Sequence record: SRR22947725_4464
Direction: 5' to 3' (one strand)
Length of the DNA stretch: 44,582 bases
Shown: one piece after another, positions 7,057 to 17,870 of the stretch
Layout: the number at the start of each line of letters is the position of its first letter
How positions within the stretch are numbered: the stretch's first letter is position 1
The notes under the pieces: model-generated
The model's database searches: none
The model's input: the letters and a program-made list of their open reading frames with translations, nothing else
Told to the model about the DNA's origin: nothing
Program-made: the position numbers and the translations under genes

Positions 7057-8151
7057 ATGAAAGCAGGAATTGTTGGCCTACCAAACGTAGGAAAATCTAC
7101 CTTATTTAATTGTTTGTCAAGTGCCAAGGCACAAAGTGCAAACTTTCCTTTTTGTACCATCGAACCCAATATTGGCGTAGTAAACGTTCCTGATCCACGG
7201 CTAAACCGCTTGGAGGAATTGGTTGCTCCCCAAAAAGTACTTCCTGCTACGGTTGAAATCGTAGACATCGCTGGCTTGGTAAAAGGGGCAAGCAAAGGGG
7301 AGGGCTTGGGCAATCAGTTTTTGGCCAATATCCGGGAAACCGATGCTATTATTCATGTGTTGCGTTGTTTTGACAACGATAATATTGTACACGTAGACGG
7401 CTCTGTAGACCCGATACGCGACAAAGAAACCATTGATATCGAATTGCAGCTTAAAGACCTAGAAGCCGTTGAAAAACGCTTGGAAAAGGTAAAACGTGCT
7501 ACACGAACAGGCGACAAAGACGCGCAGAAAGAACTTGTTGTTTTAGAGTTGCTGCACAAAGCACTTGAAGCCGCTACTTCTGTGCGTGCTGTAGCACTTA
7601 GCGATGACGATAGAACAAGCTTTGTTCATCCGTTGCAACTGATTACAGACAAACCTGTATTGTATGTGTGTAATGTAGATGAGCGTGCTGCAGCTAGCGG
7701 AAACGATTACGTTACCCAAGTTAAAGGAGCGGTAGCAGGCGAAAATGCGCAAGTATTGGTGTTGGCAGTAGCTACTGAGGCAGACATCAATGAATTGGAA
7801 ACCTACGACGAACGCCAGTTGTTTCTTGAAGATTTAGGCCTCGATGAGCCTGGAGCAGCCAAACTAATTCGTTCGGCTTATACCTTGTTAAAACTAGAAA
7901 CCTATTTTACGGCAGGGGAGAAAGAAGTACGCGCATGGACGATTCCTGCGGGTGCAACGGCACCTCAAGCTGCAGGAGTAATTCATACCGACTTTGAAAA
8001 AGGCTTTATTCGTGCCGAAGTGATTTCATATGCTGATTACGACAGCTTTGGTTCTGAACAAAAAGCCAAAGAAGCCGGTAAGGCTAGGGTAGAAGGTAAG
8101 GAGTACATTGTTCAAGACGGAGACGTGATGCACTTTAGATTTAACGTTTAA
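7057..8151 (+). CDS. ychF: Ribosome-binding ATPase YchF
   Basis: GIVGLPNVGKSTLFN, NFPFCTIEPN, DIAGLV, C-terminal TGS domain ending DGDVMHFRFNV; ATG at 7057. Confidence 0.98.
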   Translation: MKAGIVGLPNVGKSTLFNCLSSAKAQSANFPFCTIEPNIGVVNVPDPRLNRLEELVAPQKVLPATVEIVDIAGLVKGASKGEGLGNQFLANIRETDAIIHVLRCFDNDNIVHVDGSVDPIRDKETIDIELQLKDLEAVEKRLEKVKRATRTGDKDAQKELVVLELLHKALEAATSVRAVALSDDDRTSFVHPLQLITDKPVLYVCNVDERAAASGNDYVTQVKGAVAGENAQVLVLAVATEADINELETYDERQLFLEDLGLDEPGAAKLIRSAYTLLKLETYFTAGEKEVRAWTIPAGATAPQAAGVIHTDFEKGFIRAEVISYADYDSFGSEQKAKEAGKARVEGKEYIVQDGDVMHFRFNV

Positions 8152-8220
8152 TTCACCCCCTCTTTTTTCCTAATTGCAGAAATTGTTTTAATTTATACGA
8201 CAATTTTAAAGCAATTAAAT

Positions 8221-8715
8221 ATGAAAAAAGCACTTTTAGTATTCACCATAATTATACTCGCAAGCTGTGCCACTCCAACAGCACCAGCTGTAGAGGGTGT
8301 AGGTTTCTTTAAGCCCATGCCAGAAGAGAAATTCATTACAGGATCGGATGACACTACCGATTTCTGGATGAAATACATAGACGCACACAACAACCGAGAC
8401 ATTGAGGCTATTAAGTCGATGAGCGCAGACTCTATTTACATTTTAGGCCCTGATGGTTCTGAAATTCGCACCAATGGTGCACAAGCAGCCGTGTTAGAGG
8501 GCTGGTTTGCCGCCTCAAACCCAAAATGGGATATCTATTGGGCAATGCCCTACAAGACTGTTCCTAGCGGTGCAGAGTGGATTATTGCCGGACATGCCGT
8601 TACCGAAACGGTAGAAGGCAACGAAACTACCGCACTGCATATGATAGACGGTGAAATTAAAGACGGTAAAGTAGCACGCTTTTTTGTGTATGCTACCAAA
8701 GCACCTGGAGAATAG
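8221..8715 (+). CDS. Lipoprotein with probable NTF2/SnoaL-like domain
   Basis: Lipobox LASC; YIDAHNNRDIEAI...IKDGKV pattern typical of the NTF2-like fold. Confidence 0.65.
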   Translation: MKKALLVFTIIILASCATPTAPAVEGVGFFKPMPEEKFITGSDDTTDFWMKYIDAHNNRDIEAIKSMSADSIYILGPDGSEIRTNGAQAAVLEGWFAASNPKWDIYWAMPYKTVPSGAEWIIAGHAVTETVEGNETTALHMIDGEIKDGKVARFFVYATKAPGE

Positions 8716-8737
8716 GTTCTGAGTTTTATTCGTAACT

Positions 8738-8765
8738 AAAAAGCACCCGGTTGGGTGCTTTTTTT
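8738..8765 (+). terminator. Rho-independent terminator, bidirectional-type
   Basis: AAAAAGCACCC-GGTT-GGGTGCTTTTTTT. Confidence 0.85.
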
Positions 8766-8851
8766 GTGGGGATTGGTTTTGGCGGTATTTATTCTAATTT
8801 TTTAATAGGGTTCATATTGTCTCATGCTATTCTAATGTGTAACAGAAATAT

Positions 8852-8887
8852 AAAAAAGGCACCAAATAGAGAATTTACGGTGCTTTT
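8852..8887 (-). terminator. Probable terminator for the minus-strand accessory genes
   Basis: On the - strand: AAAAGCACC...GGTGCCTTTTTT, ~50 nt after the stop at 8935. Confidence 0.55.
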
Positions 8888-8934
8888 AATCTCATTGAAT
8901 AAGCTTGAAAATGTAGCAAAATAGATTTTTCAAA

Positions 8935-10137
8935 TCACTTTTCACTAAAGAAGTGAGCGTAAATAGTCTTTAATAAATCAACCTCCTTCTTATTTATTCC
9001 TTTTTCTTTAGATCCTTCGTGTGCTAATTGATTTCGGTAAGAATTAAAATAAGAAATCCATTTTAATACTTCCTTTTTGTTTTTTCCTATTCCAATATCA
9101 ATAGCAAAAGTTTTTTCGAAAGTAATAAAGTCATCTATCATTGGTTCTGGTTTTTTAGACCAATATTTTTCAATGAGAACCTTGTAATCTGTAATACTGA
9201 ACATTTCAGTCCATTCTACTCTTTTAGATATTCCCTCTTTGTAATTCTTTTTGTTTTCAGCATTTGCTCTAAGCGTACAAGCTGACTGAATAGTTTCAAT
9301 TTCTAATTCCCAATTATCTTCAAATAAAATTTCCAAATTATTGAGTATGGTCTTTTTCATAAACCTTTCAACTTCTTTGATATATTTTCTACCATCACTT
9401 TGATAAACTTCATTTTGGCGTTCTTTCCAATCTATTAATTCAGGAGGATTATAACTTGTGTGGTTGGTATTTACAATTGTTTGAAAATAACGTAGCCATT
9501 TTGTGTCAGCACCTGCTCCTAAGAGAGTAAGTTGCTTATCTTCTTCTTCAGTAGATAATTTACTCAAACCATCAAGTAAACTTTTTAAGTAAGGTTTTAT
9601 AATTTCAAATCTATCAGATGATTTTAATTGTTTGCTTAATTTCCCTTTTTCTGTTTCAAATTTATTTAAGTCTCCAATTAAGGATATAAAGGCAAATGTT
9701 CCTCTGTTTGATACGATAAAGTACTTTTCTTTATTATAAATTTTAGGGTATGAATGCTCAACATAATCGTAACAATGAATAATAAAGTCGACAATTTTCT
9801 TTTTTGCCCTATTCATTTCTTGATTGTGAACTTGATTGTTTGTATCGTATAAACTACCAACTAAAGAATCTTCATTATACTTATTTCCTTTTGCACTTGG
9901 TAAAAGACTTGAATTAGCAAGAGCCGTTGTAAATGGTTTAAAAGTTAAAACAGCTTTATCTTCACCAACAGATATTTTATTAAATAAAGGACTAGATTCT
10001 GAGTTTCCTAATTTTTTAATAATTGAAGATCTCAATGCTTTAAGACGAGAATCTGCTCTATCCGAATCCCAATACAAATCTTCTTCTAAATCCAATCTTA
10101 AACTTGGACTAACTGCCTTTTGATTTTGGTTTATATT
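8935..10137 (-). pseudogene. 5'-truncated DGQHR/DndB-like protein with C-terminal Swt1-like HEPN domain
   Basis: The frame continues upstream of the TTG at 10095 as *NINQNQKAVSPSLRLDLEED. IN..QK.V is the end-of-domain motif of DGQHR/DndB proteins, but the DGQHR motif itself is missing. The C-terminus has EVERFMK...NW, DY..LI.KYW and RNQLAH (RxxxxH). Confidence 0.7.
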
Positions 10138-10138
10138 T

Positions 10139-10262
10139 CAACGTTTTGTATAAGAATAGATGCGGGTTTGTATGCGAGGATTTTCCGAAAAAAAATCAGA
10201 TGTAGTAAACACGCAACTACCATTTTTTAGCACTAAACCGCAATTATTTTTATACGGTGTTG
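10139..10262 (-). repeat. 124-bp imperfect inverted repeat element bounded by CAAC...GTTG (attC-like)
   Basis: Left arm CAACgttttGTATAAgAATAgaTGCGGgTTT versus reverse complement of right arm CAACaccGTATAAaAATAatTGCGGTTT; internal hairpins 10179-97 and 10202-20. Confidence 0.8.
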
Positions 10263-10277
10263 CATGGCGTTTTTCAA

Positions 10278-10712
10278 TTATTTCCTGAATTTTTCTTTTT
10301 TTCTAAATACCATATTTATTCGATATTTTGCTTCACTTCCAAATATCTCAATATCATCACCGCCACCAGCTCCAATAGTTCCTGCGGTAGCATTATAAGC
10401 ATCTAAATATTCGAATCCTAATCTAGACATTGCATTAAGTAAATCAGTTTGATTTCGTATTCTTAATTTTTTTTTGTTTTGAAGTAATGTTTCTAATTCT
10501 TCTAACACTATAGCATAATCAGATTTTTTATAATCAATCATAATATTTATTCCTCCTAAAAGCTTTGTGTTCTCTGATGTTATTACTATATATTCAGGAA
10601 GTTGTTCAATGTTTACCGCAGAAGAAGTTTCTGCTTTTAGCTCTTGTGCAGATAAGTTTAATGATAATACTGTAATCATCATTAATAATAAATTTGTTCT
10701 TGTTTTTTTCAT
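10278..10712 (-). CDS. Secreted hypothetical protein (cassette-like)
   Basis: Sec signal ending LSA-Q; DLLNAMSRLGFEY motif; AT-rich; stop 15 nt before the repeat arm. Confidence 0.75.
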   Translation of the reverse strand: MKKTRTNLLLMMITVLSLNLSAQELKAETSSAVNIEQLPEYIVITSENTKLLGGINIMIDYKKSDYAIVLEELETLLQNKKKLRIRNQTDLLNAMSRLGFEYLDAYNATAGTIGAGGGDDIEIFGSEAKYRINMVFRKKEKFRK

Positions 10713-10772
10713 TTTGCGTGTGATTTGTTGTTTATATAAATACTATTTTTCAAAAAAGATGTTTAAAGTCGA

Positions 10773-10800
10773 AAACCGCTATTACGTTTATACTTTGTTG
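10773..10800 (-). repeat. Half copy (one arm) of the same repeat
   Basis: AAACCGCTATTACGTTTATACTTTGTTG matches 10235-10262 at 23/28 positions; 14 nt after the stop of 10815..11321. Confidence 0.75.
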
Positions 10801-10814
10801 GTAGCAGTGATTAT

Positions 10815-11321
10815 TTAATCATCATCATCGTGGTCATCTTTTTCGCCACGATTAAATATTCCATTATCATTATTCACATTGCTTGTTCTTATTTCAGAAT
10901 GTCTAATTTCTCCACCTGTACTTCCTACCTTCGCAAAAAGCCCAAATGTTCCTAATGAAACTACAAGGGTAATTAAACTCAAAGTTTTTGCAAAAGATAA
11001 CTTTTTGATAATCGCAAAAAAGGTGATAATTGACAAAATTCCTAAAAGTCCCATTAACCATATTGCTTTTTCAGCAAGTTCTTCGTGGTTTTCAATTAGT
11101 TGTTCCGAAACTCCTGCGATATGTTCAACAGTTTCTTCTGCTTCTTCGCCCGTTAGAAAAACAGGTATTGTTAAAATAGCCATTAATATAAAAGTTACTA
11201 GTGCTACTTTTTTTATAGCATCATTTTTGGCAAACTGACCATAAGCCAAAATTCCAATTCCGATTATTGTTCCCACTATTGGGAAATGTGTTAATATTAA
11301 ATGCAAATGTGTTGCGTCCAT
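10815..11321 (-). CDS. Four-TM membrane protein, DUF2231-like
   Basis: HL.LTHFPI, TGEEAE, ENHEE.A, GGEIRH motifs; acidic DDHDDDD tail. Confidence 0.75.
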   Translation of the reverse strand: MDATHLHLILTHFPIVGTIIGIGILAYGQFAKNDAIKKVALVTFILMAILTIPVFLTGEEAEETVEHIAGVSEQLIENHEELAEKAIWLMGLLGILSIITFFAIIKKLSFAKTLSLITLVVSLGTFGLFAKVGSTGGEIRHSEIRTSNVNNDNGIFNRGEKDDHDDDD

Positions 11322-11599
11322 AATTTTGTTCTTTTGTCATTTTTACTTAATAGCGCAATCAACGCTTAATTATAAAAGAAAACTGCATTAATGTTGGGTT
11401 GCTGTCGGTATATACTTGGTATGTGCCGTAGGTTTATCATTGTTTGGGGTTAACAGACTTTGGGGTTTGTTTAGCACTAAGTTAACAAAAATACTGAAAA
11501 GACCTCCAGATGATGTTTCAACAATTGGTCGTTGTATTTGTTAATTTCTTTGTTTGACATCGCTTCTATTTAATGGGTTGATGTTTTAAATTAGCCCTC

Positions 11600-13453
11600 A
11601 TGCCACAAACTACCCAATACAACGAAGATAATATCCGATCACTCGATTGGAAAGAGCATATTCGGATGCGTCCGGGAATGTATATTGGGAAGCTTGGTGA
11701 TGGATCTTCTCCAGATGATGGTATCTACATTCTCCTTAAAGAAGTATTGGACAACAGCATCGATGAGTTTGTTATGGGGGCGGGCAGAACCATTGATATC
11801 AAAATTGATGAAGGCAAGGTTACCGTTCGCGATTACGGTCGTGGAATACCGCTAGGTAAGGTTGTGGATGTGGTGTCTAAAATGAACACAGGGGGTAAAT
11901 ACGATTCCCGTGCCTTTAAAAAGTCGGTTGGATTAAACGGAGTAGGAACCAAAGCTGTAAACGCACTCTCGCAATCGTTTTATGTGGCATCCTCTCGTGA
12001 TGGTCAACAGAAATCCGCATTATTTTCACAGGGCAGCTTGGAAACAGACAGCCCCATGGAGGCGACCTCCCATCGCAACGGAACTCAAGTAACTTTTGTT
12101 CCCGACGAATCCATCTTTAAAAAATACCGCTACCGCCATGAGTATGTAGCCAAAATGCTCAAATACTACGTGTACCTTAACCCTGGGCTTACGATAGTTT
12201 TTAACGGTGAAAAATTTATATCGAAAAACGGCCTTAGAGACCTGTTGGAAGACAATAACAATATTGAGGATTTCCTTTATCCCGTAATCCACCTTAAAGG
12301 CGATGATATTGAAGTGGCCATTACACACAGCAAAACCCAATACAACGAAGAATACCACTCGTTTGTTAATGGACAGCACACCACACAAGGAGGAACACAC
12401 CAAAATGCGTTTCGAGAGTCGTTGGTAAAAACAATACGCGAGTTTTACGGCAAGCAGTTTGATCCCTCTGATATTCGTAAATCCATCATTTCAGCCATTA
12501 GTATTAAGGTGATGGAGCCGGTATTTGAGTCGCAAACAAAAACCAAGCTTGGGTCTACGGAAATGGGCGGAAATCTCCCCACAGTACGTACCTACATCAA
12601 TGAGTTTATTGGAAAACAACTCGATAACTTTCTGCATAAAAACACGACTACGGCTGACGCCCTACAGCGTAAAATCTTACAGGCAGAGAAAGAGCGCAAA
12701 GAACTGTCGGGGATTCGTAAACTAGCCCGTGAACGTGCTAAAAAATCAAACCTACACAATAAAAAACTCCGAGATTGCCGTGTTCACTTAGGGGATATTA
12801 AGAAGGATCGTCGTTTAGAGTCTACCTTGTTTATTACTGAGGGCGACTCTGCCAGTGGATCGATTACAAAATCTAGAGATGTGAACACTCAAGCGGTGTT
12901 TAGTTTACGTGGAAAGCCACTGAATTCCTATGGGATGTCCAAAAAAATTGTTTACGAAAACGAGGAATTCAATCTGTTGCAAGCAGCATTGAATATCGAG
13001 GACAACATGGAAGACCTGCGGTATAATAACATTGTAATTGCTACCGATGCCGATGTGGATGGGATGCACATTCGATTGCTGCTGATTACCTTCTTTTTGC
13101 AGTTTTTCCCTGAGCTAATTAAGGATGGCCATTTGTATATTTTACAAACGCCCTTATTTCGTGTTCGCAATAAAAAGAAAACAATTTACTGTTATTCGGA
13201 GCAAGAGCGCGTAAACGCACTTAATGAGTTGGGCAAACAAGCTGAAATCACACGATTTAAAGGATTGGGTGAGATTTCTCCCGATGAATTCAAACATTTT
13301 ATTGGTGATGATATTCGTCTTGACCCCGTGATGTTGGATAGAAACATGACCATAGATGAATTACTGTCTTTTTATATGGGTAAAAACACCCCAAAACGGC
13401 AAGAGTTTATTATTGATAACCTCAAAGTGGAGTTAGATAAAATAGAGCAATGA
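11600..13453 (+). CDS. parE: DNA topoisomerase IV subunit B
   Basis: [44 protein letters not shown]; 617 aa, coupled to the A subunit by an ATGA overlap. Confidence 0.93.
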
Positions 13454-16041: not shown

Positions 16042-16817
16042 ACCGAGGTTTTCTTCTTGCGAAAACGCATATTTAAAAACTCTACCAACAACGAAAATGC
16101 AATAGCAAAATAGAGGTATCCTTTTGGGATGGTTCCAACAGATTGCTGCATAACCTCTAAATGGGAAAGATGCGCACCTTCAGCCAAGAGCATAAATCCA
16201 ATAAGCAACAAGAAGGACAATCCTAAAATTTGCAACGAAGGATGTTGATGAACAAACTTACTTACAGGGTGCGCAAATAAGAGCATAACAAGTATCGAAA
16301 TAACAACTGCTATAATCATAATCCAAATAGCACCATCCAAGCCATTAGTCATTCCAACAGCTGTAAGTATTGAATCTACAGAGAATACAGCATCTATTAA
16401 GAGTATTTGAATCAATACTCGATAAAAAGTATTCCCTGATTTCTGTGCTACCTTTTCACTTTGTTCCCCAGCACGATCCATTTTTTCATGAATTTCTTTG
16501 GTGCTTTTATAGAGTAAAAATAGTCCTCCAGCAAAAAGTATTAGAGACTGTCCGTTTATTGATGCACTAACATGCTCCGTATCAATATGGAAAAGAGTTG
16601 TTTGCATGGCAACAAGCCAAGAAATAGCAAATAGTAGCGCAATACGTAGAACAAGTGCAAGAATTAATCCAATATGTGTTGCACGTTTTCGTTTGTGCTC
16701 TGGTAATTTGCCAACAACAATAGAGATGAAAACGATATTGTCTATACCCAAAATAATCTCTAAAAATGTAAGGGTCAACAGGGATGATATCGCCTCTGGT
16801 GTGAATAAAAAATCCAT
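16038..16817 (-). CDS. TerC family membrane protein
   Basis: LEIILGIDNIVFI, DAVFSVDSI, GYLYFAIAFS. Confidence 0.93.
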   Translation of the reverse strand: MDFLFTPEAISSLLTLTFLEIILGIDNIVFISIVVGKLPEHKRKRATHIGLILALVLRIALLFAISWLVAMQTTLFHIDTEHVSASINGQSLILFAGGLFLLYKSTKEIHEKMDRAGEQSEKVAQKSGNTFYRVLIQILLIDAVFSVDSILTAVGMTNGLDGAIWIMIIAVVISILVMLLFAHPVSKFVHQHPSLQILGLSFLLLIGFMLLAEGAHLSHLEVMQQSVGTIPKGYLYFAIAFSLLVEFLNMRFRKKKTSV

Positions 16818-17194
16818 TAGTCTGATAGTTTAGTTACCATGCCACGTTGTTTGTTTCCTGTGTCCCCAACCAAATTATATTCAAAAGTATATGTGGATTT
16901 GTCCGTGGTTAGTATTTTCATCTGTACCGCCTTAGAGTCTTGAAAGGTGAGGGGGCGTAGTTTTTTGACAATACACTCACAATCATTCAACCACCGCACA
17001 GAGAATGTATCCACACGGCTTAAGTAATAATCGATCTCAATACTATCGTTTCGTGTAAAGGTAGTAGTTAGCGTATCTCCTAAAACAACAGATGTAAATG
17101 AGAATTTACCAGTCTTAAACGCTTTACAATTTCGCTCAGGAGTAAAACAAGCACTTAGCAGAAGGAGTAGGGTGATGAAAACAAGTTTACGCAT
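16817..17194 (-). CDS. Small conserved lipoprotein of unknown function
   Basis: Lipobox LSAC; C..FKTGKF and W.NDCE motifs. Confidence 0.75.
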   Translation of the reverse strand: MRKLVFITLLLLLSACFTPERNCKAFKTGKFSFTSVVLGDTLTTTFTRNDSIEIDYYLSRVDTFSVRWLNDCECIVKKLRPLTFQDSKAVQMKILTTDKSTYTFEYNLVGDTGNKQRGMVTKLSD

Positions 17195-17198
17195 GCCC

Positions 17199-17206
17199 CA
17201 AAAATA
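17199..17206 (-). promoter_or_regulatory. -7 element TATTTTTG, 4 nt before ATG
   Basis: CAAAAATA on the + strand. Confidence 0.5.
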
Positions 17207-17620
17207 TCATTTTTTATTGGTGTATGTACTGCAGCTGCCATCGGAATATAATAAAACAACTTGTTTTACAATTACATCTGCCTTGTTTGGCGTGCTTTTC
17301 GGGAGCGCTTCAGAGAATGTTTTTGATATAATTGATTCTGCGACTAGCGCTTTAGATAGGGGTGCTTCTTCCTCTTCAGGGAAAAGCGGTGGTTGAGCAC
17401 TTGTTGTTTGGCTTTTTTGTTCGGAACCAAAGAGCAGCCAATTCGTATCAGTAGTAGGGAAGGCCTGTAAAAGCTTCATGATAAAATCCAAGCTGGGTTT
17501 ATTACGCCCAGACAAAATATGAGAAATGGAAGAGCGCTGTACACCCAAACGGTCAGCAAATGCAGTGGAACTTAGTTCATGTTGAGCAATGACTTCTTTA
17601 ATACGATCGATTAATAACAT
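17207..17620 (-). CDS. XRE-family HTH transcriptional regulator
   Basis: FADRLGVQRSSISHILSGRNKPSLD HTH_3 pattern; C-terminal VVLLYSDG. Confidence 0.9.
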   Translation of the reverse strand: MLLIDRIKEVIAQHELSSTAFADRLGVQRSSISHILSGRNKPSLDFIMKLLQAFPTTDTNWLLFGSEQKSQTTSAQPPLFPEEEEAPLSKALVAESIISKTFSEALPKSTPNKADVIVKQVVLLYSDGSCSTYTNKK

Positions 17621-17622
17621 GG

Positions 17623-17870
17623 TTACAATTGTAATTTAATTAGTAATATACTATTATTATACAGCAATATACAATAAAAATCACAGGAGTTTAATTAAAC
17701 TATTAATTTATTATTGGAATGTAAAACCAATATTATAAGCAAGTTACTTTAATTTACAATTAAACTGTTTACTTTTGTAATCATTTTGAAGGGATTTATG
17801 TAGAATTTGTGTTTACGTTTATAACACCTGCTGTTTCCAAATGTAAACTATAAAGAATTTACATTTGCAA
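17623..17870. promoter_or_regulatory. Array of five TTAC-N4-GTAA palindromic boxes (candidate operators)
   Basis: TTACAATTGTAA 17623, TTACTTTTGTAA 17769, TTACGTTTATAA 17813, TTCCAAATGTAA 17835, TTACATTTGCAA 17859. Confidence 0.6.

Follow-up and report, generated by a model that had tools for sequence, protein, structure and literature searches.

The question raised by this locus is what sequence follows, at almost the same distance, the stop codons of two neighbouring minus-strand genes in a stretch of 44,582 nucleotides (sequence record SRR22947725_4464; hereafter the window). The genes lie in an AT-rich island between a DUF4440 gene and parE that holds three minus-strand ORFs of 168, 144 and 386 aa (Table 1), and an earlier note, made from the letters alone, had read the shared sequence as part of an integron-like cassette site left over from an array of co-oriented cassettes. 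The analysis reported here indicates that the element at 10140-10262 is very probably the recombination site of an integron-like gene-cassette system of the Flavobacteriaceae that employs an Xer-like recombinase, and that the window holds a small, decaying cluster of this system without a recombinase of its own.

The shared arm begins at 10262, 15 nt on from the stop codon of the 144-aa gene (10278-10280), and again at 10800, 14 nt on from that of the 168-aa gene (10815-10817), confirming the spacing first noticed. The two 28-nt arms (repeat family D3) are identical at 23 positions (82%), and their common pattern is matched twice in the window and not once in 100 shuffles. The first copy also has an inverted partner arm, at 10148-10171, and together they delimit an element of 123 nt that runs from CAAC (10262-10259) to GTT (10142-10140), which confirms the AAC...GTT palindrome of the earlier note. 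The element shares 89% identity with a copy in genome G142 and 88% with a copy in Maribacter ulvicola. What had been counted as a second copy does share the 5′ arm, however its 3′ half is missing, and the remaining stump scores only 12.5 bits against the family model (E 0.056 in a 3.1-kb search without filters). A degenerate site considered upstream of the 168-aa gene, ending near 11363, found no support (8.4 bits, E 0.44, in another register). Elsewhere in the window there is a very weak match to the model at 17710-17765 (10 bits, E 6), and a small minus-strand pair at 16817-17620 between the TerC and M14 peptidase genes, consisting of a 137-aa HTH_3 protein and a 125-aa ORF without a family, could be another small insertion.

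Table 1. Features of the AT-rich island and its cassette sites.
Feature	Position	Strand	Remarks
AT-rich island between DUF4440 gene and parE	8780..11451		GC 0.26-0.33 vs 0.40-0.46 in the flanks
Cassette gene A, 168 aa	10815..11321	-	Several hydrophobic segments (by eye); no family above cut-off
Truncated site, 5′ arm only (about 33 nt)	10768..10800	-	Starts 14 nt past the stop codon of cassette gene A; agrees with the 5′ arm of the intact site at 23/28 positions
Cassette gene B, 144 aa	10278..10712	-	N-terminus signal-peptide-like (by eye); no family match
Intact cassette recombination site (probable attC analogue)	10140..10262	-	Covariance model R1, 131.2 bits, E 7e-28; belongs to the upstream 144-aa gene
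Putative crossover triplet GTT	10140..10142	-	Duplicate cassettes elsewhere diverge right after GTT; DndB-like gene begins 2 nt on
DGQHR/DndB-like gene (PF14072 family proteins), 3′ two-thirds	8935..10137	-	Begins 2 nt after the GTT of the site; 386-aa ORF at 8935-10095

The element belongs to a large family. A first pattern search of five genomes that are relatives by ParE returned five matches, all of them in M. ulvicola (G002) and four of them co-oriented on one contig, while the reversed pattern used as a control returned none. On that contig an AT-rich run of minus-strand ORFs carries an element of about 129 nt 10-23 nt after each stop codon, and the conserved stretch of these elements spans precisely from CAAC to CGTT and one following purine. 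A covariance model (R1) built from ten copies was run on a sample of 151 Flavobacteriaceae genomes and detects the element in 129 of them, often with at least 22 scored candidates per genome. Complete genomes contain one large single-strand array each, with a few scattered copies elsewhere; the arrays examined comprise about 90 copies over 77 kb in G093, 56 copies in G142, 24-27 in G098 and 14-15 in G154, and M. ulvicola has 27 copies genome-wide, many of them at contig ends. Across the five arrays and the window (344,582 nt) the model gives 201 matches at E ≤ 1e-3; strand is uniform within each of the five arrays, and the median spacing of elements in them is 724-996 nt. The expectation attached to the earlier note, that family members would lie in tandem just 3′ of variable ORFs, is thereby borne out.

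The position of the element relative to genes follows a clear rule. Among 195 full-length elements, 133 begin between -5 and +30 nt from the stop codon of a same-strand ORF of at least 50 aa, with a mode of 10-11 nt, compared with 782 of 12,000 random in-array positions; for the other 62 no stop codon of such an ORF lies within 30 nt. The genes themselves are diverse: Pfam assigns no family to 64 of the 91 cassette ORFs taken from two arrays, and the remainder include Imm7, DMP19-like, ParE toxin, superoxide dismutase and other matches. One cassette-like unit in the M. ulvicola array (L086:9789-14612) encodes a giant, putatively defence-like protein of 1,607 aa with helicase (AAA_11/12), REase_MTES_1575 and GreA/GreB C-terminal domains. 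In the G142 array (L109/L110 region), one site has its GTTG immediately followed by a series of N, a masked or withheld stretch within the array.

Cassettes that recur at non-adjacent places within an array (c59/69, c60/65 and c68/75 in G093; c20/27 and c43/47 in G142) define the limits of the mobile unit. Identity between the duplicates starts at the invariant CGTT of the otherwise unrelated upstream site, covers the gene together with the entire downstream site, and in each pair examined ends right after the GTT of that downstream site. The duplicating unit is thus gene plus site, not the site alone, and its boundaries indicate that each site belongs to the gene preceding it and that crossover takes place in or beside GTT, as in integrons. 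No covariation was detected between the base after GTT and position 1 of the element.

A candidate enzyme is encoded at the arrays. At the 5′ head of the M. ulvicola array, on the cassette strand, lies a gene for a 375-aa tyrosine recombinase (PF00589 and PF13495) whose best sequence match is the XerA structure 4a8e, with an end-to-end alignment (E 2e-45). The protein passes the NF040815 model (XerA / 'integron integrase') with 226 bits against a cut-off of 220 and fails the TIGR02249 model, scoring 204 bits where 265 are required. A segment of 74 residues in IntI4 (2a3v) is matched by only 31 in this protein, so the IntI-specific insertion is absent. Homologues occupy the 5′ head on the same strand in four of the five arrays examined; in the fifth, G098, none was found in the examined region despite its 24-27 sites. 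Genome-wide, homologues occur in 107 of the 151 genomes, namely 102 of the 129 with the element and 5 of the 22 without it (tables cross-read by hand), whereas 27 element-positive genomes have no homologue at E ≤ 1e-45. The tie between element and tyrosine recombinase suspected in the earlier note is accordingly seen both within arrays and across genomes. A shorter type of recombinase, aligning only to residues ~105-375 at 42-46% identity, is encoded divergently to nearby elements at G006:C13, G013:C7 and G046:C29; this head-to-head placement corresponds to the classical integron arrangement, whereas the long type is co-oriented with its cassettes.

The window itself encodes no such enzyme, as the earlier note had stated: tblastn finds no tyrosine recombinase and PF00589 is absent from the 43 scanned ORFs of at least 100 aa. 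Pfam, NCBIfam and PADLOC searches place none of the three island proteins in a family above cut-off, and the five arrays examined hold no homologue of the window's cassette proteins. Homologues of the 144-aa protein (64-76% identity) are present in 5 of 401 genomes of the family, in differing contexts, and the element comes after the gene in only one of the five.

The earlier picture of co-oriented cassettes holds for the two genes that precede the sites, however the gene downstream of the intact site is a truncated DndB-like gene rather than a cassette. The 386-aa ORF encodes a C-terminal portion of a DGQHR/DndB-like protein and aligns to residues 269-654 of the 655-aa homologue P0017; the homology as a whole extends to 10137, 2 nt past the GTT of the intact site, and so reaches back to residue 255 of P0017, and in a second homologue, P0002, it covers residues 53-449 at 88% identity. 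The N-terminal ~254 residues of the protein are nowhere in the window. This junction, with the start of homology 2 nt past GTT and the N-terminal part missing, indicates that the intact site has been joined at the crossover point to the interior of the gene, either by insertion of the cassettes at a secondary site or by a deletion between the site and a secondary site. No cassette site follows the DndB-like gene, where two terminator-like hairpins were read by eye, and a covariance-model search finds no recognisable site at the outer ends of the island.

Marine metagenomes show the island to vary from strain to strain. In two such runs, X3 and X4, with depth taken from Logan contigs, the flanks are four to five times deeper than the island (~28 vs ~6); uncovered parts of the island in some runs were given no weight. 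One X4 contig joins 8779 to 11452, adjoining a minus-strand GTT, and this single contig, with a side of only 29 nt, gives a weak hint of an island-less joint. The island is absent from the parE loci of 80 relatives, the closest of which has 84% ParE identity, and no DGQHR homologue is found near parE there either. Among the first 45 of these 80 ParE-anchored loci, ychF lies just upstream of parE in 18, with a gap of 94-1,616 nt, compared with 3,448 nt in the window (8151-11600). The gap has the look of a hotspot, its content being variable in the relatives, and in the window it also contains a lineage-specific DUF4440 gene (8221-8715, normal GC) that has no counterpart in the relatives' loci examined.

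The structure of the site emerges from the family rather than from the fold of the window element. Folded alone, the coding strand of the window element shows no significant gain over shuffles (z -0.61 for 146 nt), and comparison of the two strands gives z -1.41 for the top and -2.26 for the bottom strand. A motif of the type TTGC..GTTT occurs three times in the element (alignment A2), once in each arm, the 3′ one being inverted, and once between the arms, so that a long inner hairpin competes with the outer stem over about 5 nt, and minimum-energy folds alternate between the two. Across the family, by contrast, an outer stem of 16 positions is Watson-Crick paired in 2014 of 2400 cells (150 of the 201 elements; RNAalifold and pair counts), with several and up to four pair types per position. 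In alignment A3, which was fitted to the model and hence favours its structure, 89.3% of stem cells are paired compared with 69.5% after shuffling and 25-50% after sliding, and 516 cells are changed on both sides compared with 148 in shuffles. It is this covariation, which the earlier note had named as a check, that supports the structure. The ends are nearly invariant: AAC is found in 150 of 150 elements and the two T of the final triplet in 150 and 149, YAAC and GTTR are each present in 149 of 150, and the next three positions are unconstrained. The site further has a conserved GC-closed inner hairpin with a 4-nt loop, two conserved 1x1 A.C (G.T) positions and unequal spacers.

The mismatches are strongly asymmetric. 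Non-Watson-Crick stem cells comprise 338 A.C on the coding strand, equivalent to G.T on the bottom strand, and only seven coding-strand G.T, and in DNA folding it is the bottom strand that gains the greater stability in seven of seven elements, which together suggest that the folded bottom strand is likely the active form of the site.

Such a structure, placed 10-15 nt after stop codons and containing a covarying stem and a conserved hairpin with a 4-nt loop, could instead act in RNA, as a terminator, a 3′-UTR stabiliser or a regulatory RNA of the cassette mRNAs, with no part in DNA recombination. The strand asymmetry runs the wrong way for this, since it is the mRNA-sense strand that carries the mismatches (338 A.C against seven G.U cells). 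Further, no T-run follows the hairpin, and an Rfam scan of positions 9500-12000 at E ≤ 10 gave four weak matches, all outside the element and well short of the gathering score. A purely RNA-level element would also leave unexplained the GTT boundaries of duplicated cassettes, the cut in the DndB-like gene 2 nt after GTT, and the tie between arrays and recombinase. We therefore regard it as unlikely, although the element may have a secondary role in transcription. A separate sub-threshold match to Listeria rli45 on the minus strand at 11326-11397 (27.7 bits, gathering score 60, E 0.042) is most likely due to chance in AT-rich DNA.

A selfish MITE- or REP-like repeat spread by a transposase or RAYT-type enzyme would likewise be a multi-copy palindrome with conserved ends, and the many copies at contig ends would fit it. 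Target-site duplications of at least 4 nt, however, flank none of 192 elements, and every element points the same way as the ORF upstream of it, the copies forming single-strand arrays with as many as 90 members. The duplication of gene and site together likewise argues against a mobile repeat, as does the lack of a transposase in a Pfam scan that was limited to the 91 cassette ORFs. This explanation is very improbable.

It could still be that the sites are ordinary attC sites, the window being a true CALIN served by a classical IntI encoded elsewhere. The AAC...GTT ends, the position after stop codons and the imperfect hairpin would all be expected of attC, and reviews, in the parts available, list Bacteroidota among the integron-bearing phyla. 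The recombinase at the array head, however, is no IntI by its TIGR02249 score and its shortened insertion region, and its gene is co-oriented with the cassettes; on these two grounds the system is not a canonical integron, which narrows the earlier reading of an integron-like cassette site while arrays, position and covariation uphold it. The ends also appear to differ. Integron core boxes are RYYYAAC (R″) and GTTRRRY (R′), whereas over the positions tallied only YAAC and GTTR, apparently not the 7-nt boxes, are conserved here. A classical integron thus has only a slight chance of being the correct reading. That the likeness of two AT-rich intergenic stretches arose by chance can be dismissed as next to impossible, since against the AT-rich background stand the 100 shuffles without a match, the E value of 7e-28 and the hundreds of copies elsewhere.

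With a cassette system preferred over these alternatives, the closest described system is rAID-1, the recombinase-associated acquired interbacterial defence clusters of gut Bacteroidales (Ross et al. 2019, bioRxiv 10.1101/471110). According to the available portion of that preprint, rAID-1 occurs in 226 of 423 Bacteroidales genomes and consists of a 5′ XerD-like recombinase and co-directional low-GC genes with intergenic repeats 'reminiscent of integrons'; it is defined by a recombinase at least 44% identical to the reference of B. fragilis NCTC 9343 and at least two co-directional downstream genes with GC of at most 41%. Over residues 95-374 the recombinase of M. ulvicola shares 47% identity with its best Bacteroides match, which stands at the head of a cluster of this kind. 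That cluster has ~17 small co-directional ORFs with GC 0.31-0.39 compared with 0.48-0.59. The window island, with three minus-strand genes at GC 0.26-0.33, has the gene content that the rAID-1 definition asks for, as have the arrays examined, and some flavobacterial cassettes match Pfam Imm7 ('Immunity protein 7'). There are also clear differences: rAID-1 has been described only from Bacteroidales, and the examined Bacteroides cluster has spacers of 30-100 nt in which the flavobacterial model finds nothing, whereas the flavobacterial system has structured sites of ~129 nt in arrays of up to 90 copies over 77 kb. Site structure, crossover point and strand are left undefined in that part of the rAID-1 paper (bioRxiv 10.1101/471110).

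The likeness to integrons is broad. As far as the available parts of the sources on sedentary chromosomal integrons, Vibrio cholerae repeats and CALINs go (Cury et al. 2016, PMC4889954; IntegronFinder 2.0 preprint), both systems have co-oriented single-gene cassettes with the site after the stop codon, AAC...GTT ends, an imperfect hairpin of similar length, a cassette boundary at GTT, strand asymmetry, recombinase-less satellite clusters and secondary-site junctions inside a gene. The flavobacterial sites lie directly 3′ of the cassette ORF, with cassettes co-oriented and the boundary at G/TT, as the definition of an integron requires. They differ in apparently conserving only 4+4 end bases; and where attC has extrahelical bases, they have the two 1x1 A.C (G.T) positions and spacers of unequal length. 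The recombinase differs in lacking the IntI-specific insertion and in that its gene faces the same way as the cassettes, not away from them. By sequence the array-head recombinase is closest to the XerA/XerC/XerD chromosome-dimer resolvases (PDB 4a8e, 5hxy, 1a0p), compared with which it has an extra N-terminal region of ~105 residues without a family, heads cassette arrays, and is present in only part of the genomes. For Bacteroidetes, the portion of the IntegronFinder 2.0 preprint available to us gives only In0 elements and one complete integron, in Salinibacter ruber, and IntegronFinder surveys, to the same extent, report no such arrays in Flavobacteriaceae. No published description of the flavobacterial cassette system was found in the collection of papers searched, outside subscription journals and supplements.

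These observations suggest how the system might work. A cassette consists of one gene, occasionally more, followed by a site of ~129 nt with (C/T)AAC and CGTT ends, a covarying outer stem of 16 positions and inner hairpins. The Xer/XerA-like tyrosine recombinase, whose gene usually leads a large array from its 5′ end in the orientation of the cassettes, presumably cuts and rejoins DNA in or next to GTT, most probably on the folded, single-stranded bottom strand, and by doing so would excise, insert and duplicate cassettes. The window would then be a satellite cluster without a recombinase, comparable to an integron CALIN, made up of two cassettes, A and B, of which the first has a decayed and the second an intact site; this intact site has been joined at GTT to the interior of the DndB-like gene, as expected from secondary-site recombination. 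In the genome from which the window derives, the recombinase would have to act in trans, as the earlier note proposed.

On balance, we favour the broader view that this is a second kind of integron that extends throughout the Flavobacteriaceae, with arrays of up to ~90 cassettes, an Xer/XerA-like recombinase that lacks the IntI insertion, and sites of ~129 nt that are recognised in the form of folded bottom-strand hairpins, with crossover at GTT and with conserved G.T positions where an integron site has extrahelical bases. It would share ancestry with rAID-1, scatter recombinase-less clusters, and cut genes at secondary GTT sites, as in the window, where such a cluster accounts for both the strain-variable AT-rich island beside parE and the truncated DndB-like gene. 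Integrons are currently defined by IntI and, according to surveys, are nearly absent from Bacteroidota. If the view is correct, single-stranded cassette capture at hairpin sites exists without the IntI-specific domain, which would offer a natural comparison for determining which features of integron recombination are essential and a mechanistic frame for rAID-1. Cultured strains such as Maribacter ulvicola DSM 15366 allow the system to be tested directly. Cassette capture would then operate in most genomes of a dominant marine bacterial family, widening the known routes of gene flow in the ocean.
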